Shown: positions 8,903 to 61,780 of the stretch, one piece after another
Numbering within the stretch: the stretch's first letter is position 1
Layout of the letters: every line of letters begins with the position of its first letter
Assembly: GCF_006345805.1 (NCBI RefSeq)
Contig: NC_043005.1
Span: 43,648,001 to 43,712,000 of the forward strand
Source of the DNA: Octopus sinensis
Lineage: Eukaryota
Length of the DNA: 64,000 bases
Reading direction: 5' to 3'
Notes under the pieces: model-generated
What the model was told of the DNA's origin: nothing
The model's database searches: none
Seen by the model: only the letters and a program-made list of their open reading frames with translations
Program-made: the position numbers and the translations under genes

Positions 8903-9988
8903 ATATATCTTATTTATTTATTTTATTTTATTTTATCTAGTTTCAGCTCACGAGCTGTGGCCATGCTGGGGCACCGCCATTTGGTGTTGCTACATGATTT
9001 TACTTCACGAATGCTTTTTAGCAATTGGCATTTGGTGCATGAGAGAGTTCGATGCAGCTGCCCTCATCTGCACCTCCTGCCGTGAAGTTGGTTCGTCTGG
9101 GACACCTGACAGGAAGAGATTCAGTTTTATTTTAAAGACATCTGCATTCACCCGATGCAGGTCTCTCAGGTCCTTCGGGAGGATATTGAAGAGCTGTGGG
9201 CCTCTGAAGCCCAGGCTATCACAGTATCTTGTCCTACATCTTGATGGCAAATTTGGAGTCCTTGGCACTATGCAGTGGCGCCCAGTTCTAGTATTTGTGT
9301 AACTCTCGATGCCAAAGTTTGGGACAAGTCCTTCCAGGATCTTCCAGATGTATATTATGGCATATCTTTCTCGCCTACGCTCTAAGGAATAGAGTCTTAA
9401 TCTCTTGAGTCTTTCCCAGTAGCTTATATGCTGCACAGAGGCTATCTTCTTCGTGTAGCTTCGTTGGATCGCCTCAAGTTCTGCGATTAACTTGACACTG
9501 GATGGTGACCATAGCTGAGAGCAATAGTCAAAGTGGCTTAAGACAAGTGTCCTCCAGAGGACCATCATGGTTTCCTGGTCTCTTGTTCTAAGGGTTCTAA
9601 GAATCCATCCGGTCAGCCGCCTACATTTCATTGCCAATTTAGCAACATGCACATGAAAGGTTGCATCATCACTCATGTAAATACCCAGGTCTCGCACTGA
9701 TTGTGCCTCTGGGATTGCAATCCCTCCAGGTCTAGTGTATTTATTGGGTATTGCATTTAGTTTTGCATGCTGATAGCATAAAGCTTGAAACTTTTCAGCA
9801 TTGAACTGCATGCTATTCTCTTCAGCCCATTTGTATATTTTATCCAGCTCACATTGCAGGTGCATAGTGTCTTCAGGGTTCTGTATTGTCTGTGAAACTT
9901 TTGTATCATCTGCATAACTTGTGATCGTGGCTCTCTGCGTGGCTGAGGGCATGTCTGAGAGGGCCATTATGAACAGTAGTGGTCCCAT
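8900..9988 (-). mobile_element. 5'-truncated CR1/L2-group LINE: RT C-terminus plus 3' UTR and (TAAAA)n tail
   Basis: 327-aa open frame 9005-9988: GPLLF...YADDTK...RDLG...DYCSQLWSP...LEAIQR...SYWERLKRLRLYSLERRRER. 3' UTR GGCGGTGCCCCAGCATGGCCACAGCTCGTGAGCTGAAAC. Confidence 0.9.
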
Positions 9989-10632
9989 TCTGTCCGAATT
10001 TTGAATAAAGAAAACAAGTGATCAAATGTTATTTAATTGAAATTTAATCATCAATGCACTTTCCCTGATTATCTATGACTTCCTTCCATCTATTTACAAG
10101 CTTTTTAATCCCATTGGTTTCAAAGCGAAGAACTCTGAAATGTCTGTTGCGACCTCCTCCTGGCTTGTGAAAGCATTGACCGTGAAACTCCACTGGCAAA
10201 AACTTGGGCGCGAAACTCTGCTGGGAAAACCTTGGTGGTAAAATTGGCAAACCGTGTTTCATATTTATATAATAGACTCTCCCGTCGAAGTCGACGTATG
10301 AGCGTTCAGCTTTTGGCCGAACGCCCTGCACAAATGATTTGATTACAGTGATCAAATGTTCGGACCGTACATTAGCTCACTCCCTCCATCGACGTTGTCT
10401 GGACAGGTTCACTATGTACCATGCATCAGGTGTGGAAGTAATCGCAGAGCAAAGTGAGATGAAGTGCTTCCCTCAAGAGCACAACGCATTACGTAGTACA
10501 GGAATTGAAATCACGATCGCTAGGTCAATTCTGCAACATCCTACCCACAATGCCATGCGCATATATAGGTGTGTGTATACAGTATATATGTATTCCTAGT
10601 CAACATATGATCTTTAACAAAAAATACTTGCT

Positions 10633-10801
10633 CGAGTGGCTGTGTGGTAAGTAGCTTGCTTACGAACCACATTGTTCCGGATTCAGTCCCACTGCGTGGC
10701 ACCTCGGGCAAGTGTCTTCTACTATAGCCTCGGGCCGACCTAAGCCTTGTGAGTGGATTTGGTAGACGGAAACTGAAAGAAGCCCGTCGTATATAGGTAT
10801 A

Positions 10802-10879
<78 letters not shown>

Positions 10880-11082
10880 TATGTCTGTTTGTTTTCCCCC
10901 AACATCGCTTGACAACCGATGCTGGTGTGTTTACGTCCCCGTAACTTAGCGGTTCGATAAAAGACACCGATAGAATAAGTACTAGGCTTACAAAGAATAA
11001 GTCCTGGGGTCGATTTGCTCGACCAAAGGCGGGGCTCCAGCATGGCAGCAGTCAAATGACTGAAACAAGTAAAACAAGTAAA
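10633..11082 (+). mobile_element. Major tRNA-derived SINE (near full length), with internal (TA)/(TG) tract and CR1-like tail
   Basis: GAGTGGCTGTGTGGTAAGTAGCTTGC...TTCAGTCCCACTGCGTGGCACC...CTCCAGCATGGC.GCAGTCAAATGACTGAAAC. More than 10 further copies or fragments in the window. Confidence 0.85.
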
Positions 11083-11789
11083 AGTGTCACATTGTGTGAT
11101 TGAACCCTTGAATCAAGTTTACAAAGGAAACATTTTAACCACCGAGCCATGCGTTTCTTATTTTACTAAACGAAACTTATGCTTTTTATTCAGACATTTA
11201 CACTCACTTTCCTTATACATGAATCAAATAGAATTATGTTAAAGTAATTGTTTTCACAGCTGGATGCCCTTCCTATCGTTAATCATTCAACTGAGAAGTA
11301 TTAGTGAAAACACGTTTTCTTTTCTTTCTTTGTCAGGCATCTTAAACCAAACAAAGGCATGTGCCTCGTTCGTATACGCAACACAATGGCAAAATTTGAA
11401 CTTCTAACCTCGATGTCAGTGCACGGACACTCCTAACTCCCATTTCTAAATTTTTTGCCTATTCGTATTATTTCTATATTATTATTTAATTTCATGTAAC
11501 TACACATATGCATTTCTACTTACTTCTCTCTCTCTCTCTCTTCCTTTCATACACGCACACACACATACGCTGTATATAGACTCATACGCATATACATATA
11601 ATTCTGTGAACGTGCTATAAGTAAAGACAGTGCAATAGGCGCTGACCTTTAGTTTGAACACGGTTATTAATCAGTTGTGTATGTTCTACACATACATATA
11701 TAAACACGCAAAAGTACATACATAAATGTGTGTGTACATGTAAACATACACACACACACATATATACATTGGGGTCTCTATATACTCTT

Positions 11790-12147
11790 TTCAGTTATTT
11801 GACTGCGGCCATACAGGAGCACCGCCTTTGGTCGAGTAAATCAACGCCAGGATTTATTCTTTGTAAGCCTAGTGCTTATTCTATCGGTCTCTTTTGCCGA
11901 ACCGCTAAGTTACGGGGACGTAAACACACCAGCATCGGTGGTCAAGCGATGTTGGTGGGGACAAACACAGACAGACACACACACACACATATACACGACG
12001 GGCTTCTTTCAATTTCCGTCTACCAAATCCACTTACAAGGCTTTGGCCGGGCCGAGTATAGCAGAAGACACTTGCCCAAGGTGCCACGCAGTGGGACTGA
12101 ACCTGGAACCATGTGGTTTGTGAGCAAGCTACTTACCACGCAGCCAA
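11790..12147 (-). mobile_element. Major tRNA-derived SINE copy
   Basis: Reverse complement of 10633-11082. Confidence 0.85.
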
Positions 12148-12328: not shown

Positions 12329-12366
12329 GGCGCAGGAGTGGCTGTGTTGTAAGTAGCTTGCTAACC
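12329..12366 (+). mobile_element. Head of major SINE, interrupted by the Tx1-like array
   Basis: GGCGCAGGAGTGGCTGTGTTGTAAGTAGCTTGCTAACC matches the SINE 5' end. The last 16 bp recur at 14395-14410, 16658-16673 and 17645-17660. Confidence 0.85.
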
Positions 12367-14394
12367 TTCGTCGAAGTCGGACGTGTTCTTTTTGGCGGAG
12401 AGTGCTTGATGTCACGTCTTTCGTCGTGAAATATTGAATTTTGAGGCTCGACTACAGGTAGGCGTTTGTTGTATTTTTTTGAGGGCTTAGTGGAGTTTGT
12501 TGCCCTGTATTTAATATTTTTTGGTGAGTAATAAACTCCACTCTGCTCCAGACATTTTCCTGCCTGTGGTCGAGCGTAAAGACTCACTTTGCAGTGAGAA
12601 TTGTGTTTTTGAGGAGGCGTAGTCCCTCCGCAAAAATTAATTTGTTTGCTTCTGAAATTGTCTTTGTGTTTCCCACTGGATTTACCACGGAGTACCAAGG
12701 TAGAAAGGACTAATTGTGCTGCGGTTGGATTTATTTTACCATTGGAGGCCAGGAGTACCTTTTCGGCCGAAAAAATTGATTCCTTTGTCTGAACACTCTT
12801 CTTCGAGCTATCATTCATTTAAAAAAAAGAACTTTTTTGAACTGTTGATTATTTTATTTCTTCCCTTCTGTTCTGTTTTTCCTTCTTTTTCAGTTTTATT
12901 TTATTTTGTATTTTGAACTTTTTTGAGCTAGTTTTTCAATGACAAAGGAATTGCTCGTGTGGGAGTTGACACCTCTCAAGAAATGGCTAAAGGACCTGGA
13001 AAGGAAGACCGTGGTGTTGAGGACTTATTCGAAGTCGCTCGACACCATAGCCGTCTTCCCGAAGGCCACAATTTTGAACGAGCTGGCGGACTACATGCCA
13101 GCCGTTAAATTTATCTCACGGGGAGTGAAATATGCAACGGTCTGGTTGATATTTGACTCCCCACAAGAAGCTTGCGATTTTGCAAGCCAGCCCCTTGATG
13201 GCAAAGAAATATTATTTTTGCCAAATTATATGTGAAAAAAGTTATCAAAAGCTTGGATCTGTGGCCTACCACCCGGAGTTGAGCCCGAGTGGATAGAGGA
13301 CTCTATCCGCCGGGGTCTGGGTAGTAGCAATACCAAGTTGCTGAGTGTTAAAATGTTGCCTGCGGCTGATTGGGAGGGATCGAAAGCTGTTTTGACCCTA
13401 TGGACCCAATCAGCCGAAAGTCTGGTTTTTCCAGATTTCTTGAGGTTGGCCGGGTCCAGGTATCCGGTGATGCTTGAGGGATGCCCGCCCCCCAAGTGTC
13501 ACCTGTGCCTGAAGACCGGCCACATTAAGAAGAACTGCCCCAGGGACCAAAGTAGGATCCTGGAGCAGTTAATGGTGGAATGTCTCCCTGCTCCCCCAAT
13601 GGAGGGAGAGAAACAGAAGAATAACGAGGAAATCGCTACATCCACAAAAAGAAAAACAAAGGTGGGCAACAATGGTGACCCACCGAAAAACCCGGGAGCT
13701 GCGGGAGAAAAAGAGGACCCGTTGTGTGAAACACAGGAACCTCACCCTCCCGCGGCCCAGGGAAAAAAAGGAAAAAAGAGAAACGGGACGCCGCCGGCGG
13801 ATAGTAACACGCGGACGGCGTCTCCCAAGCCTCCTCAGGCGGGTGTGCCGCCGGAGGATAAATATGTGGTCCTCTTCCACAAAGGAGGAACCATTGAGAA
13901 TGAAATAAGGAAAATGGAAAGGAGGGGCCAATGGGAGGGACTTCGGTCCTGCACGGAGGACGTTGGGTGGCCTTCGCAGGTGGCTGCGGAGGTCCGATGG
14001 GATAGCGATCTGTGCAGGATCGTGAATTCCTTCCCGGACGACTCCTATAGATTTGTACCTGTGTGGTCTTGCCTGGAACCGGCTGAGTGCTTCAATAAAG
14101 CAAGAGAGCTGGTCAGCCGGGTGACCTGAACTTTTTGTATATTTTGAAGGAACATTGTATTATATTGAAACCTGAACTTTCTGTATATTTTAAAAGAACA
14201 TTGTAAGAGGTTTATTGCCTCATTATGATTTGTTGAAAAAAGAACATTGTTTTAGAGAAGCGGAAGTCGGCGGGCGCTTTCGTCTTCTCCCATCATCATC
14301 TTCGTTCCATCACCATCATTCATACCATTAATGTCTATGTCCTGCCCGCAAAGCTACATCTGTGTAATGCCCATGTGGAAAATTAGATAAAATA
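12367..14394 (+). mobile_element. Tx1/L1-type ORF1-only non-LTR element, unit A (2028 bp)
   Basis: 5' UTR, single ORF1, structured 3' UTR and short A-rich end. Flanked by 16-bp direct repeats. Confidence 0.85.
12939..14129 (+). pseudogene. ORF1 (Tx1/ZCCHC3-like RNA-binding protein with CCHC knuckle), one nonsense codon at 13233
   Basis: ORFs 12939-13235 and 13338-14129 are in the same frame. PDFLRLAGSRYPVMLEGCPPPKCHLCLKTGHIKKNCP is a Tx1/L1 ORF1 zinc knuckle. The TGA corresponds to GGA (Gly) in unit B. Confidence 0.8.
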
Positions 14395-14410
14395 AAGTAG
14401 CTTGCTAACC

Positions 14411-16657
14411 TTCGTCGAAGTCGGACGTGTTTTTTTTTTTGGCGGAGAGTTCTTGCTGCTTGATGTCACGTCTTTCGTCGTGAAATATTGAACTTTGAGG
14501 CTCGACTACAGGTAGGCGTTTGTTGTATTTTTTTGAGGGCTTAGCGGAGTTTGTTGCCCTGTATTTAATATTTTTTGGTGAGTAATAGACTCCACTCTGC
14601 TCCAGACATTTTCCTGTCTGTGGTCGAGCGTAAAGACTCACTTTGCAGTGAGAATCGTATTTTTGAGGAGGCGTAGACCCTCCGAAAAAATTAATTCGTT
14701 TGCTTCTGAAATTGTCTTTGTGTTTTCCACTGGATTTGCCACGGAGTACCAAGGTAGAAAGGACTAATTGTGCTGCGGTTGGATTTATTTTACCATTGTG
14801 AGAATTGGGCGGGGGGGGGCGTATTCGTTTTCGATAAATTGAGTGAATATTTTTCTCACCTAATTATGAGAACTGTATTGTGCCTTGAAGAACTTTAAGA
14901 ATTGTGAGAACTGCTATATAGGGGAGTGCTTTGCCTCCGAAGTTCGAACAATTTTTACCAATTTTATACCAATTTTTGTGGAAGTTGTGTTCCAGTTGCG
15001 GCGTTCCGAGTTCAATTTAGGCCGGGAGTACCGAAAGGCCAGAAGATTTTTTGCTGTGTTATGGACTTTCTTTTGAACTTTATTTGATTTTCTCCTTTTT
15101 ATTTATTGTGACTTTCTGTTGATTTCTTCCCTTCTGTTGTGCTTTCTCCTTTTTTTTGTATCTTTCTCATTTTTTTAAAACCTATCGTGAACTTTATTTG
15201 GACTTTGAACTTTTTTCACATGGCAAAGAAAAATGAAGCCACTGCTTTGGAGTGGGAGGTTGTCCCACCCAAGCAGTGGATTAAAGATCTTGAGAAGAGG
15301 ACGGTGGTACTACGAACCTATTCTAGGTCGCATGGGGCCATCGCCCTCTTCGACAAGAGCATAATAGAAAAAGAGTTGGCAGACCACCTGCCAACTATAA
15401 AGTTTATTTCTCGGGGGACCAAATTTGCAACGGTGTGGTTGCTGTTTGGTACTTCCCGAGGAAGCTAGCAGATTTGCTAGCAAGCCCCTTGAGGGAGAGG
15501 AAGTTTTGTTCCACCCCTCGTATTGTGGAAGAAAAATAAAAAGAGCCTGGGTGTGCGGGCTGCCCCCGGGCATGGAGGCGGGATGGATCGAGGAGACCAT
15601 CCAACGAGGCCTGAGAGATAGTGGGCCCAAGCTTTTGAGTGTAAAAATTACTCCCGCGGTCGACTGGGGGGGGGGTCAAAGGCAACTTTGACCCTGTAGA
15701 CCCCGGTGGCCGTGGGAGAGATGATATTCCCAGACTTCCTGAGAATGGCCGGGCACAGGTGCCCGGTGATACTCGAGGGACGCCCCCCCCCAAGTGTCAC
15801 CTGTGCCTGGATCCTGGACATATCAAAAGGAACTGTACCGGGGGCCGTGGTGGTGCCCCGGAGCATGGAAGGGAAAAGGTGCCCGCCGCCCCCTCACTGG
15901 AGGGGGAGACGGTGGAAGTCGTGGAGGAGGTTGCCTCCACGAAAAGAAAGAGACAAGTGAGCAACAATGGTTGCTCACCAAAGAATACTCAGGCGGCGGA
16001 GGGGGATGATGACCCTCCATGTCTGCCGACGGAGCCCCCTGGGCTAGCAGCCTCTAAAAAAAGGAGGAAAAAGAGAAATAGAGGTCGGGCGGCTGATGTT
16101 CCTGGGTCGCCGACGGAGCCGCAGGTGGGATGTGTGCCACCTGCGGACAGGGCCCCGTCAGTGGGAAGCGTGCCACTGACGGAGCAGTATGAAGTCCCTT
16201 CCCGTGAAGAGGAGATGTTTGTCCTCCTTTATCACGAGGGAGGGACGATTAGTAAATTTCTGGACGGCTTGGGCGACCGAGGACGTGTGTGCTCGTTCTA
16301 CTCAAGCTGTCCGAATTGGCCTCAGCAGGTGGCTGCGGAGGCGGTTACGGAAAAAATTTTGTCAAAGGTCACAGCGACCTTTGACAAGAAAGAATTCGCT
16401 TTTCTCTTTTCAGGCCCCGACTTGTCGATGCAGAGTTGTCTGCAGGCGGCAGGTCACTTAATTCGGGGGACCTGATAAAGAGAATTGTAAGAAAATTTTG
16501 TTGTAAAGAAACTTTGTATTCGAGGGGTTATTGGTCGGCGGGTGCCAGTACCCCTCCCATTTTTGTTCATCATTATCATCCTCATCTCATTAATGTTTTT
16601 GTCCAGCCCGCAGCTAGTCATCTATGTACTACCCTCGTGGCAAATTTTAATGAAATA
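14411..16657 (+). mobile_element. Tx1/L1-type ORF1-only element, unit B (2247 bp; diverged family with A-type 5' end)
   Basis: 14411-14798 is nearly identical to the unit A 5' UTR, followed by a different UTR and a diverged ORF1. Flanked by the same 16-bp repeats. Confidence 0.85.
15220..16475 (+). pseudogene. ORF1 of unit B (frameshifts plus one TAG)
   Basis: MAKKNEATALEWEVVPPKQWIKDLEKRTVVLRTYS...CGLPPG...PDFLRMAGHRCPVILEGRPPKCHLCLDPGHIKRNC. Colinear with unit A ORF1. Confidence 0.8.
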
Positions 16658-16673
16658 AAGTAGCTTGCTAACC

Positions 16674-17644
16674 TTCGTCGAAGGTTTTTTTTGGCGGAGA
16701 GTTTTCCCAGATTTCCTGAGAATGGCCGGGTCCAGGTATCCGGTGATGCTTGAGGGACGCCGCCCCCCAAGTGTCACCTATGCCCGAAGACCGGCCACAT
16801 TAAGAAGAACTGCCCCAGGGACCAAAGTAGGATCCTGGAGCAGTTAATGGTGGAATCTCTCCCTGCTCCCCCAATGGAGGGAGAGAAACAGAAGAATAAC
16901 GAGGAAATTGCTACATCTTCAAAAAGAAAAAGAAAGGTGGGCAACAATGGTGACCCACCGAAAAACCCGGGAGCTGCGGGAGAGAAAGAGGACCCGTTGT
17001 GTGCACCACAGAAACCTCATCCTCCCGCGGCCCAGGGAAAAAAGAAAAAAGAGAAACGGGGCGCCACCGGCGGATTATGACACGAGGACGGCGTCTCCCA
17101 AGCCTCCTCAGGTGGGTGTGCCGCCGGAGGATAAATATGTGGTCCTCTTCCACAAAGGAGGAACCATTGAGAATGAAATAAGGAAAATGGAAAGGAGGGG
17201 CCAATGGGAGGGACTTCGGTCCTACACGGAGGACCCTGAGTGGCCTTCGCTGGTGGCTGCGGAGGTCCTATGGGAAAGTGACCTGTGCAGGATCGTGAAT
17301 TCCTTCCCGGAGGACTCCTATAGATTTGTACATGTGTGGTCTGGCCTGGAGCCGAGTGAGTGCTTCGATGAAGCAAGAGCGCTGGTCGGCCGGGTAACCT
17401 GAACTTTCTGCGTGCTTTAAAAGAAAAAAAATAGAACATCGTATTATATTGAGTCAGAGGTTTATTGCCTCATTGTGATTTTTTGAAAACAGAACATTGT
17501 TTTAGAGAAGCGGATATCGGCGGGCGCTTTCGTCTTCTCCCATCATCATCATCGTTCCATCACCATCATTCACACCATTAATGTCTACGTCCAGCCCGCA
17601 AAGCTACATCTGTGTAATGCCCCTGTGGCAAATTAGATAAAATA
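16674..17644 (+). mobile_element. Unit C: internally deleted A-family copy (971 bp)
   Basis: About 28 bp of the 5' terminus is joined directly to the PDFLRMAG region. The 3' half of ORF1 and the 3' UTR closely match unit A. Confidence 0.85.
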
Positions 17645-17660
17645 AAGTAGCTTGCTTACC

Positions 17661-18527
17661 TGTCTAGTGGTTAGACGTTTTTGTTGACGGTGAGTGGAAC
17701 ATTTTGTCGATCATTGAATTGTTTTTCTGTTCGAATTATTTATTGCTGAACATTGTAGAACTGTGGAACTGTTAAAACTGTTAAATTTTGTGCTTTTTCC
17801 CGGTGACGGGAAAAAGAAATAATTTGTGTAAAACTATTTTTCTGTTGTGAACTGTTGGAATTTTTTAAATTGTTAAAGCTGTTGTCGGCTGTATATTTTG
17901 TGCCCCCCGCCACTTCGGGGGTGGGATCTGAACTCTTGTACTCGTAGATAGGAAAAAAGTGAAAAACCATCATAGGTCTCCCGCTTCTGGGGATTACAAA
18001 ATAATTTTTGGGTGTGAAATTTCGACCGTTGAAGGCTTTGTTGTTGCGTCTCGCCCCCCTGCGGGGGTGAGATTCGAACTGTTACCCTCGCCGAGGGGAA
18101 ATATGTATATATAAAAGGAAAAAAAAAGCACATAGGGTTCCCGTTTCTGGGGATTACCAATTAATTTTTGTGTGTGAAATTTCGACCGTCGTAGACTTTG
18201 AGCGGGAGTGTGATTTGAACTGTTACCCTCGTCGAGGGGAATATAAAAACAAAAATAAAAAACATAGGTTTCCCGTCTTTTGAGATTCCATTTTGTGTAA
18301 AAATGTCTGTCGAAGTTATTTCGAAAAAACTTTCACTGGATGAGCCAGTTAAGAAATTCTCTGCAGTTGCCGCGGTGGCAACGGAAAATGTCGAATTACA
18401 GAAAGAAAAGCTCTCAGAGCTTTTTGGAAGAATGAAAAAGGAGGTGGGTAATATAAAAAATATCACCCTCACCTAGTGTAGAAAAATTTAAAAGAAGGAC
18501 AGTTGTTTTTAAAACATACTTTTATAT
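17661..18527 (+). mobile_element. Unit D: third related family, 3'-truncated, with ~150-bp tandem monomers in the 5' UTR
   Basis: Follows the fourth target copy. About three monomers at 17900-18290. ORF start at 18303 and a frameshifted KFKRRTVVFKTY matching DLERKTVVLRTY of units A and B. Confidence 0.65.
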
Positions 18528-20257
18528 TGTCGTCAGAAGCATCTGATAGCGTGTCTGTGATTAGGTCTCTGACGCTGAGCGAAAGAATCCCACTCAATAC
18601 GATGTGCAAACTCTGTCGAGCCGATTGAATGATAGTGGGGCAGAGTGATGTGACTCATCTTCGGCGAGAAAAACGTAGCACACGTCTAGAAGAAGGGGAA
18701 AAGAGCTGGACGTGACCAAAAACCAGACAATACACATCCAAGAAAATTCCACACGTGGTCGTGAGCAAACAGAATAACGTCCTCCAACGAGAAAAAATGT
18801 CAGGAGACAAGGACAAGTCCAAAAGAAAATGCTAAGTCGTACCTGACAAAGGAAAAAAAATTGTCATGTAGTGAAATATGGATTTCACAACAGAAAAGGG
18901 TCACGTGTGTCGAACACACAGACAGTTGTTTAGCAGCTATCGAACACACGAACACAGTTCAACGTTGGCATTAGGAGAAAATTACACGTGGAGAAAAATG
19001 GCCGTAACAGCCATCAAAGAAATATTCTACGGAGAAATTCCACACGTTGAGCAGTTTTAAGTTAGGGTCGACTCAAGTTATGCATTTCTTCTCGTAAAAC
19101 ATCGTCGCGCCATTTCTGGTTCAGGGAGAACCTTTCCCGCTCAGAGATGGCGTAGAAACTTTCTCATAACCCAGAGGTATGTCCTTTTTTCTGACCGGAT
19201 TCACTAGTGTAGGAGAATTTGACCGCTGAAAAAATTCATAGCTTTCCACACATTATAGAGCTGATAATGTAGAAGCAATTATGAGGTTGAACGTCGTGAA
19301 TCATATAGCAGGCAATGGCTGTTGAAGCAAAAGCTGTAAATCTTTTTACACAGAGTCACCACTTTAGCGAGGGACCGTGGATGCGTGTTATATGTCGGGG
19401 TCATCACTTTAGCAAGGGATGTCGATAATGAAAACGTCAATACTTTAATAACTGGACCGAGTCATTAATCCAACAGCTCTGAAATGCCCCTGGTGCAATA
19501 AGTGACAACATCACTCGTGTCCGTGCGTGAACAACTTCGTGTCCAAGATTTTATTCAGATGCATAATAAACGAACTCATACAGTGAGTACACAATATTCA
19601 ATAAAGTTATATGGGATGAAGAAAAAGGCTCTGAACATCTTGCCATGTTCGACGATGACAATGAAAAAATAAAGGGAATTCAACTACAAATTTACCATAT
19701 CGAATCCATGTGCTTGGCTCTTTCTCTGATCTTGTCCTAGGCGTGACGTAGAGAAAAAAAAAGTTCAATTTGAATACGCTCTTGAGTAGGCGATACGCTT
19801 CTAGCTCCCTCCCGTGTGTCGTTTATTAGTTACACGTTGTATCCTAGCAAAGGGGGAGCTAATCATGTTCACTTGGAATATTCTAAAACATTCGACAGGA
19901 GAGATGACTGTCGTTGACTCTCAAGGGATACTTTGCGGGCTTGCGAACCTGCCTCAAATAGCGTTGCCTACAAACTGTATACATTCCCCCAGCACTTATA
20001 TGCATGCTTGCTCTACTCGTGGTTTGCTGTTCAAATTTCAGTTCATTGGTGAAATATTTTCTTCAATATAACTATTCTTTATACAATTAGTTCCTTTAAT
20101 GTACCGTTTGTATATGCTCCCCGAGTCTATTCGTGACTTGTTCTTCGAATTTCAAATCGGTAAGCGAATAGGCTTCCATTCGCTTTTACGCATGCTCATG
20201 GTTTACTGGACAAATTTCAGATTGTTATGCGAGTTTAATTTCCTTCTGAAAAACCGT

Positions 20258-20517: not shown

Positions 20518-20935
20518 AAGGCGGCGAGCAGGCAGAAACGTTAGCACGCCGGGCGAAATGCTTAGTAGTATTTCGTCTGTCGTTACGTTCCGAGTTCAAA
20601 TTCCGTCGAGGTCGACTTTGCCTTTCATCCTTTCGGGGTCGATAAATAAAGTACCAGTTTCGCACTGGGGTTGATGTAATCGACTTAATACCTATGTCTG
20701 TCCTTGTTTGTTCCCTCTGTGTTTAGCCCCTTGTAGGTAATAAAGAAATAGGTATTTCGTCTGTCGTTACGTTCTGAGTTCAAATTCCGTCGAGGTCGAC
20801 TTTGCCTTTCATCCTTTCGGGGTCGATAAATAAAGTACCAGTTTCGCACTGGGGTTGATGTAATCGACTTAATCTCTTTGTCTGTCCTTGTTTGTCCCCT
20901 CTATATTTAACCCCTTGTGGGCAATAAAGAAATAC
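20518..20935 (+). mobile_element. tRNA-derived SINE with Nin/Deu-like central domain, body tandemly duplicated
   Basis: GGCGGCGAGC.GGCAGAAACGTTAGC head. GCCTTTCATCCTTTCGGGGTCGATAAATAAAGTACCAG domain occurs twice. Other copies at ~38707-38915 (+), 44832-45063 (-) and 61178-61576 (-). Confidence 0.75.
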
Positions 20936-60904: not shown

Positions 60905-61780
60905 GAGGCATAGCTGTGTGGTGAGAAGTTTGCTTCCCAAACCACATGGATCCAGGTTCAGTCCCACTGCGTGGCATCTTGGTTAAAGTATCTTCTATTA
61001 TAGCCTTGGGCCAACCAAAGCCTTGCGAAAGGATTCGGAAGATGAAAACTGACTGTCATTTGAGTGTGTGTTTGTGCGTGCGTGTGTGGTGTGGTGTGTG
61101 TGTGCGTGTGTGGCGTGGTGTGTATGTGTGTGTGTGTGTGTGTATCTGTGTCTTTGTGTCTGTGGTTGTCCCCCAATACCTATTTCTTTACTACCCACAA
61201 GGGGCTAAGCACAGAGGGGACAAACAAGGACAGACACATGGATTAAGTCGATTACATTGACTCCAGTGCATAACTGGTACTTAGTTAATCGACCCCGAAA
61301 GGATGAAAGGCAAAGTCGACCTCGGTGGTATTTGAACTCAGAATGTAATGGCAGACAAAATACCTATTTCTTTACTACCCATAAGGGGCTAAACACAGAG
61401 GGGACAAACAAGGACAGACACATGGATTAAGTCGATTACATCGACTCCAGTGCGTAACTGGTACTTAGTTAATCGACCCCGAAAGGATGAAAGGCAAAGT
61501 CGACCTCAGTGGAATTTGAACTCAGAATGTAATGGCAGACAAAATACCACTAAGCATTTCGCCCGACGTGTTAACGATTCTGCCAGCTCACCACCTTACT
61601 TGACAACTGGTGTTGGTGTGTCTATGTCCCCATAACTTAACAGTTTGGCAAAAGAGACTGATAGAATAAATATCAGGCTTAAAATACATAAGTACTGGAA
61701 TCAATACATTCAACTAAAAAATTCTTCAAAGCAGTGCTCCAGCATGGCCGCAGTCTAACAAATGAAACAAGAAAATGACT
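60905..61780 (+). mobile_element. Major SINE with nested dimeric Nin-type SINE (61178-61576, minus)
   Basis: Head at 60905 and tail resumes at ~61577 (ACTTGACAACTGGTGTTGG). Confidence 0.75.

Follow-up and report, generated by a model that had tools for sequence, protein, structure and literature searches.

How do four retroelement units come to stand head to tail at one short site inside a single short interspersed nuclear element (SINE)? The question is raised by a 64,000-nt window of the Octopus sinensis genome (GCF_006345805.1, 2.72 Gb; NC_043005.1:43,648,001-43,712,000, forward strand), the whole stretch of DNA analysed here, in which a motif search found the 16-mer AAGTAGCTTGCT(A/T)ACC as exact copies at 12351, 14395, 16658 and 17645, compared with a shuffle-based chance expectation of 0.03 matches per window. 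The analysis described below indicates that the four units separated by these copies, designated A to D, are most probably separate insertions of one lineage of long interspersed nuclear elements (LINEs) at a 16-bp site in the SINE head, A to C encoding only the first open reading frame (ORF1) of such an element and D being a stub, and that the system is real and genome-wide.

Organization of the array

The features of the array, together with an unoccupied copy of the target SINE, are the following.

10630-11090, + strand: intact, unoccupied target SINE, with the site at 10649-10664
12329-12350, + strand: SINE head upstream of the insertion site, with an A-box-like motif; matches the intact SINE at 10634-10663
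12351-12366, + strand: 16-mer target copy 1, head side, the likely site for new insertions (from the motif and the polarity evidence)
12367-14394, + strand: unit A, full-length ORF1-only element (type I), 2,028 bp
12939-14129, + strand: A ORF1, with two predicted RNA recognition motifs (RRMs), a CCHC knuckle, a disordered linker and a C-terminal alpha/beta domain
14395-14410, + strand: 16-mer target copy 2, exact match
14411-16657, + strand: unit B, full-length ORF1-only element (type I) of a diverged subfamily, 2,247 bp
16658-16673, + strand: 16-mer target copy 3, exact match
16674-17644, + strand: unit C, an internally deleted A-like sibling, with a 5' end of ~27 nt and the 3' 0.95 kb
17618-17630, + strand: 3' tail hairpin with a 4-bp stem and a 5-nt loop, common to ORF1-only and autonomous families
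17645-17660, + strand: 16-mer target copy 4, the TTACC variant typical of the D family
17661-18520, + strand: unit D, 5' stub of an autonomous-type family, with the 5' untranslated region (UTR) and the start of ORF1 at 18303

The ORF1 of A is broken by a single internal stop (13233-13235) and that of B (15220-16475) by frameshifts and a stop; the fold assigned to A ORF1 was taken from the model of an intact natural relative. The tail hairpin of C is also present near the ends of A and B, with one mismatch in each. Tandem duplication of the window units was rejected, as it had been in the initial annotation, because the ORF1s of A and B are only 67% alike, the first ~380 nt of the two units being 94% identical. 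That A and B encode a CCHC-type ORF1 and nothing else was likewise borne out, since a search for the domains of the array lineage gave no endonuclease or reverse transcriptase (RT) match in the whole window. The 16-mer had also been placed within the intact SINE at about 10649-10664, where it is indeed present, but with one mismatch; a further intact empty SINE site is located near the array at 12119.

The initial annotation had described C as a deletion derivative of A. Nevertheless, C is 88.6% identical to A and 91-93% identical to other genomic copies, and therefore it is an internally deleted sibling that does not derive from this A. It had also counted D as the fourth ORF1-only unit of the stack. 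However, the 3' part of D corresponds to ~73 codons of an autonomous-type ORF1 (53% and 62% identity), and endonuclease and/or RT sequences are located downstream in 12 of 20 fetched D relatives, including both nearest ones (84%). The homology of D ends at 18520, another low-copy repeat starts at ~18519, and the SINE 3' half is missing after D; D is therefore a stub, whose 3' part was lost together with the SINE body. The stack is thus four units deep, with three ORF1-only units and an autonomous-type stub as the fourth. Contigs from four sequencing runs bridge the junction between the D end and the repeat, and those from two runs bridge the C/D junction; no single contig record in the sequencing runs spans the whole array.

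The repeat adjoining the broken D end (window 18519-18900) is an unclassified low-copy sequence with ~5 other copies at 74-86% identity. D-family copies elsewhere (L146, L147, L152, L157, L158 and L162) keep both ends and show differing internal ORF1/ORF2 deletions. The window also contains, at 9005-10021 on the minus strand, a 338-aa C-terminal RT fragment of another LINE type, which we take to be CR1/L2-like.

Insertion at the SINE head is sequence-specific

All 30 loci retrieved with the A 3' end, a query that contained the 16-mer and that recovered the window itself in 2 of the 30, adjoin the 16-mer, which is followed by the SINE body in 21 and by another element in 9. In agreement with this observation, the element starts immediately after the 16-mer in 29 of 30 A 5'-end loci, 22 of them after SINE head plus 16-mer and 7 after the 3' end of another element plus 16-mer, the remaining locus not being classed. 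When the tail motif was searched without the target, 301 genome matches were obtained versus 3 in the control, and 88 of the first 100 listed, as counted by eye, adjoin the SINE site in either SINE subfamily. These data support that elements with these ends insert sequence-specifically in the SINE head, the landing site originally proposed.

The 12 off-target loci among those 100 are also informative. Nine of them still start with AAG, and five carry private duplications of 12, 13, 14, 16 and 18 bp, all of which start at AAG preceded by T or C; among the others, two match no element, one is located in a SINE head and four are without clear class. The private duplications indicate that target duplication is real and that insertion is independent of SINE movement. 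The SINE head itself shows box-like motifs by eye and acceptor/T-arm-like pairing; a tRNA origin was not borne out by Rfam, whose matches to the head were microsatellite noise and none of them a tRNA, or by ARAGORN, which made no credible call.

One insertion is present at least five times at G000:C30:8.83-9.35 Mb, each time with the same flanks, owing to a segmental amplification that took an occupied SINE along.

A full-length partner shares the target and the 3' tail

Among the first 30 of 409 exact junctions between an element end, the target and the SINE body, 19 have the A/B-type tail and 11 another tail, and 4 of these 11 end a long ORF2-type frame. Two autonomous elements of 5.46-5.48 kb, L111 and L112 (~98% alike), are located between SINE head and body and contain a CCHC ORF1, an APE endonuclease, an RT and a zf-RVT domain, and L106 represents a third, internally damaged copy; the Pfam domains Exo_endo_phos, RVT_1 and zf-RVT were found in all three. 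An APE-RT partner with the same target and tail, for which the initial annotation had recommended a search, was thus identified. Its ORF1 shows 27% identity to that of A over 190 residues (E 2e-15), and the closest solved relative is LINE-1 ORF2p (E 5.5e-49, versus 1.7e-20 for R2). The partner displays further traits of the L1 group, i.e., an ORF1 plus an ORF2 with N-terminal APE endonuclease and RT and no long terminal repeats (LTRs), and the lineage shows target-site duplications (TSDs) of variable length (12-18 bp) and common 5'-truncated copies.

The 3' end of all families consists of the 4-bp stem with its 5-nt loop followed by an A-rich end. In 33 tails (28 distinct), 93.8% of the cells are paired, with six double changes, and none of 500 shuffles scored as high, in a test that is inflated by kinship among the tails. 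The common tail, target and TSD type suggest that full-length relatives likely supplied, in trans, the endonuclease-RT with which A, B and C were copied. Two observations weigh against this interpretation, namely that all three near-complete autonomous copies examined are broken and that RNAalifold alone recovers two of the four hairpin pairs.

The lineage likely belongs to the Tx1 clade of the L1-group non-LTR retrotransposons, an assignment based on ORF1 type and target preference and not on a tree with named references. An ORF1 of the class termed type I in the literature (RRM plus CCHC) is described, in the passage concerned, as consistent with Tx1 in non-mammalian animals (PMC5203782), and zf-CCHC was found here in 24 of 24 aligned ORF1s, with scores below the Pfam cut-off in the copies that we call type I. 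Target preference, which is common but not universal in the Tx1 clade, is displayed by 88 of 100 3' ends. No Transposase_22-type Pfam match was found in the 24 ORF1s, which sets them apart from the mammalian L1-derived HAL1 proper. The 120 listed ORF2 relatives, unnamed or 'hypothetical', included no named Tx1 reference; 10 clusters gave one name, the atlas comparison gave generic names only, and the RT tree contains unnamed relatives and one Argonauta protein.

ORF1-only lineages and constraint on ORF1

The units were catalogued as 116 segments, 16 being dropped as mis-called or composite. A matching ORF2 was found in none of the 79 catalogued type I units, one of which holds an unrelated 29% RT match, and the 69 near-complete ones share a common ORF1-to-tail layout with a median length of 2.04 kb. 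The type I ORF1 has at least 150 genome matches; in the best 30, no endonuclease or RT was detected downstream, a tail-type junction follows within 1.21 kb in 22 (one of which was called on an internal look-alike) and 8 are without a clear end. A second lineage, type II, comprises 4 units of 1.42-1.51 kb whose ORF1 is nearer to the autonomous ORF1. That these are ORF1-only families rather than local ORF2 deletions had been suspected at the outset and is in agreement with these data.

For 24 ORF1-only copies whose frames are open, the ratio of nonsynonymous to synonymous divergence (dN/dS) over the ~200 N-terminal codons was 0.25, 0.20 and 0.19 at dS values of 0.15-0.3, 0.3-0.6 and 0.6-1.0 (36, 53 and 55 pairs, respectively). 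These values point to purifying selection on the ORF1 of the ORF2-less clade and, because type I forms one such clade, selection would most simply postdate the loss of ORF2; against this, the pairs are not independent and an open frame was the basis on which the copies were selected.

Database sequences related to the type I ORF1 are limited to one Octopus sinensis gene model. The structure predicted for an intact copy (L227:1739-2923; mean pLDDT 65) has two RRM folds, with best Z values of 9.7 and 8.2, as well as the knuckle, a linker predicted to be disordered and, at the C-terminus, an alpha/beta domain. The first RRM is matched best by that of the La autoantigen (Z 9.7, 22% identity, ~1 Z above other RRMs); a predicted fold shared with La shows no function. 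In the atlas comparison the type I ORF1 is placed near CCHC and ZCCHC3-like clusters (score 0.89-0.92), which is a lead only. The families are mosaics in which 5' UTRs, ORF1 halves and tails have been swapped. Four copies (L005, L007, L009 and L012) are chimeras, B-type in their 5' half and A-type in their 3' half, indicating recombination between ORF1-only subfamilies.

Part of the target is often carried by the element

The initial annotation had assumed that the target is regenerated through the TSD. The two flanking target copies were compared in 37 solo full-length insertions. Six of these carry, near position 9 of the 5' copy, an indel that recurs within families. The other 31 show 9 differences between the 5' and 3' copies over 248 left-half positions and 45 over 248 right-half positions (p 1.7e-7, the positions not being independent). 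Moreover, L192 lies at a divergent site with a TSD of 15 bp, after which comes another target copy that is almost complete, and in one unit of the stack at C7 the full 16-mer is followed by 11 more target letters. These data indicate that positions 9-16 of the 5' 16-mer are often carried by the element and that the 16-mer is not purely a TSD. The original assumption thus holds in that real duplications of 12-18 bp are formed, but the right half of the 5' copy is often element-borne. The RNA probably starts within the target, and its target sequence would anneal to the duplicated site.

Units are stacked above expectation and with an apparent polarity

The genome contains 52,602 exact empty sites versus 409 filled ones, i.e., ~0.8% of the well-preserved sites are filled; a looser junction pattern gives 1,312 filled sites. 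Uniform site choice (Poisson) predicts 0.004 sites with at least three units, and eight such loci were observed: the window (4 units), C7 (13 junctions), C2, C19, C20, C13 and two at C3. In less biased samples, the unit was directly preceded by another element in 7 of 12 cases for D-family copies, in 5 of 21 for A-type 5' ends (leaving out the window and apparent segmental duplicates) and in 2 of 18 for ORF1 matches (both in one stack), and 3' junctions adjoin another element in 7 of 88 and 3 of 100 cases (p 0.047 for the latter). The excess therefore ranges from ~4-fold to more than 30-fold, depending on the sample, and because ~99% of the sites are empty, target regeneration alone does not explain it. 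The excess suggests that site choice depends on more than the sequence preference of the endonuclease. Several points count against a firm estimate: the filled and empty sites were counted with patterns that differ slightly, the number of empty sites would be inflated by SINE copies that are younger than the elements, the stacked loci were fetched because of their stacked appearance, and the stacking rate varies by sample, down to the 3 of 100 mentioned above.

The stacks also appear to be polar. At C7, seven junctions in a row, of different families, have a C at position 9, and the three head-proximal junctions share a G-less variant that is characteristic of one family; at C19 and L226 the common variant is present in the body-side copy and C in the inner copies. 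All 12 loci picked for an open ORF1 are located directly behind the SINE head. The junction variants and the position of the open ORF1s fit sequential insertion at the head-side copy, and so does the T or C before AAG at the off-target sites. A point on the other side is that nearest-relative identity, which puts D oldest (84%), does not order A, B and C. Among 5'-intact units, 74 of 88 start with one of three short motifs, which we take to resemble bZIP/bHLH, NRF1 and ETS sites and which may open chromatin at the junction. Homology to the resident 5' UTR was rejected as a requirement for stacking, since the 5' ends are closely similar in no more than 3 of 25 adjacent pairs.

A second SINE (window 20518-20934 and 61175-61597) has a tail that resembles that of the autonomous family, with at least 25,613 exact tails genome-wide; in about 30 of the first 100 listed, the tail runs into one or other of two sites internal to that same SINE, which to judge from these junctions forms self-targeted head-to-tail arrays (four in tandem at G000:C1:15259067-15259736). 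At G000:C7:10.418-10.478 Mb (L236-L239, L218 and L219), tandem sister L1-group elements with the tail type of the second SINE (endonuclease 50-54% and RT ~62% identical to those of L112) flank both sides of the 13-junction stack, and C7 is possibly a regional cluster of such elements.

A model for stack growth and its alternatives

We propose that the ORF2 protein of the partner binds the hairpin at the 3' end, introduces a nick at (T/C)|AAG and starts reverse transcription from it, each ORF1-only element likely needing its own ORF1 protein in cis. The 5' end of the RNA, carrying part of the 16-mer, would pair with the duplicated target and rebuild a complete head-side site, on which new copies would land; stacks would then grow at the head side and D would be the oldest unit. 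The reason why occupied sites are favoured is the least certain part of the model: the promoter in the resident 5' UTR may open chromatin at its own junction, a suggestion that we rate somewhat short of even. The combined proposal, in which a full-length element rebuilds the target and its promoter makes the junction ten to tens of times more attractive than a SINE without an insertion, so that the landing pad reinforces itself, is put forward tentatively.

A possible alternative, which we also hold with reserve, keeps the targeting as described and ascribes the stacks to SINE copies in intrinsically open germline chromatin, the residents not attracting newcomers. A regional hot spot of this kind is suggested by the surroundings of the C7 stack, where other L1-group elements, whose tail differs, stand in tandem; in addition, one pooled sample was only 3% stacked. 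Nevertheless, the stacked neighbours in two unbiased samples have an intact 5' end in 10 of 10 cases, though truncated copies are common, and intact empty SINEs are located close to stacks, such as those at 10649 and 12119 in the window.

It is unlikely that each stack was formed in one event, with an RT that ends in the complement of the 16-mer, thereby mimicking the primer, and then continues on a different RNA from its 3' end; transcripts reading through entire stacks would look the same. In favour of this view, element 5' ends carry target sequence, adjacent units share 5' ends slightly above random (permutation p 0.011), and end-to-end template jumping is known for R2, as far as the literature consulted goes. 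However, old (D-type) and young families are found in common stacks, the unit order is never repeated among the stacks examined, and at C7, C3 and C19 families that are unrelated have the same local 16-mer variant at their neighbouring junctions, as would be the case if it had been copied from the DNA on the spot.

Finally, it is most improbable that the ORF1-only units are local deletions of full-length elements or passengers in an amplifying SINE, a view to which internally deleted autonomous copies with both ends (which are common) and segmental duplicates at C30, C24, C18 and C13 lend some colour and which is largely refuted by the single layout of type I and its lack of any ORF2 remnant, its own ORF1 clade, its 5' truncation at many points, its presence in both SINE subfamilies and its off-target copies with private TSDs.

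Relation to known systems and significance

The comparisons that follow concern the relevant passages of the cited sources. The closest parallel is Tx1-Mar with SINEU-3 of crocodilians, which targets Mariner with a 16-bp TSD and shows tandem insertions (Kojima 2015, PMC4494074). There, too, a Tx1 LINE and a non-autonomous partner prefer a site in an abundant transposon, and tandem copies sandwich the TSD, which was ascribed to sequential insertion; in contrast, the target is a DNA transposon, the partner is a non-coding SINE, and the passages of PMC4494074 report no above-chance stacking or polarity. Tx1L of Xenopus (in Tx1D), Keno (U2), Dewa (tRNA-Leu spacer) and Mutsu (5S) are also sequence-specific APE-type elements with multicopy targets, including genes transcribed by RNA polymerase III, but none is listed in these passages with a SINE-head target or with ORF1-only derivatives (PMC1950540, PMC4494074, PMC3706591). 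Dada DNA transposons resemble the octopus elements in inserting near the A box of tRNA genes and in occurring in tandem, whereas they move by cut-and-paste, produce 6-bp TSDs and target real RNA genes (PMC3706591).

The ORF1-only LINEs named in a 2018 list are HAL1 (L1), Ag-Sponge (CR1) and HeT-A (Jockey), all non-autonomous elements that kept ORF1 and the 3' tail and lost ORF2; this list names no Tx1 member (PMC5786205). The octopus elements differ from them in the RRM-RRM-CCHC organization of ORF1, in forming two lineages (~2.0 and ~1.45 kb) and in their sequence-specific insertion. The HeT-A/TART/TAHRE arrays of Drosophila telomeres are similar in mixing ORF1-only and autonomous elements head to tail, in one orientation and with growth at the 5' side, and in having an ORF1 under purifying selection; they are, in contrast, added to chromosome ends and serve the host, whereas the octopus arrays are interstitial, have TSDs and give no sign of host function (PMC5537684). 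In O. vulgaris, 13 recently active L1-Tx1 families are listed, and a term search of the main text found no 'target', 'nested' or 'site-specific' (PMC13282606). No SINE-targeting Tx1 element or Tx1-derived ORF1-only family was found in the literature searched, outside of which lie Repbase Reports and subscription journals. Therefore, the combination appears to be unreported so far, a prior annotation being possible, while each ingredient has a precedent in Tx1-Mar/SINEU, HAL1 or HeT-A.

With this system, sequence-specific LINEs gain a SINE head among their targets and, should the clade assignment be right, the few ORF1-only LINEs listed so far gain a member derived from Tx1. Why non-autonomous elements retain ORF1 can be tested naturally here, in dozens of subfamilies that are under selection and have no ORF2. 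Work on LINE targeting can also profit from an APE endonuclease whose site is defined and whose off-targets can be measured. The polar stacks provide a relative dating of families. If the self-reinforcing landing pad proves true, autonomous and ORF1-only families would together form interstitial and polar arrays of the HeT-A/TART kind, from which the order in which retrotransposons were active could be read.

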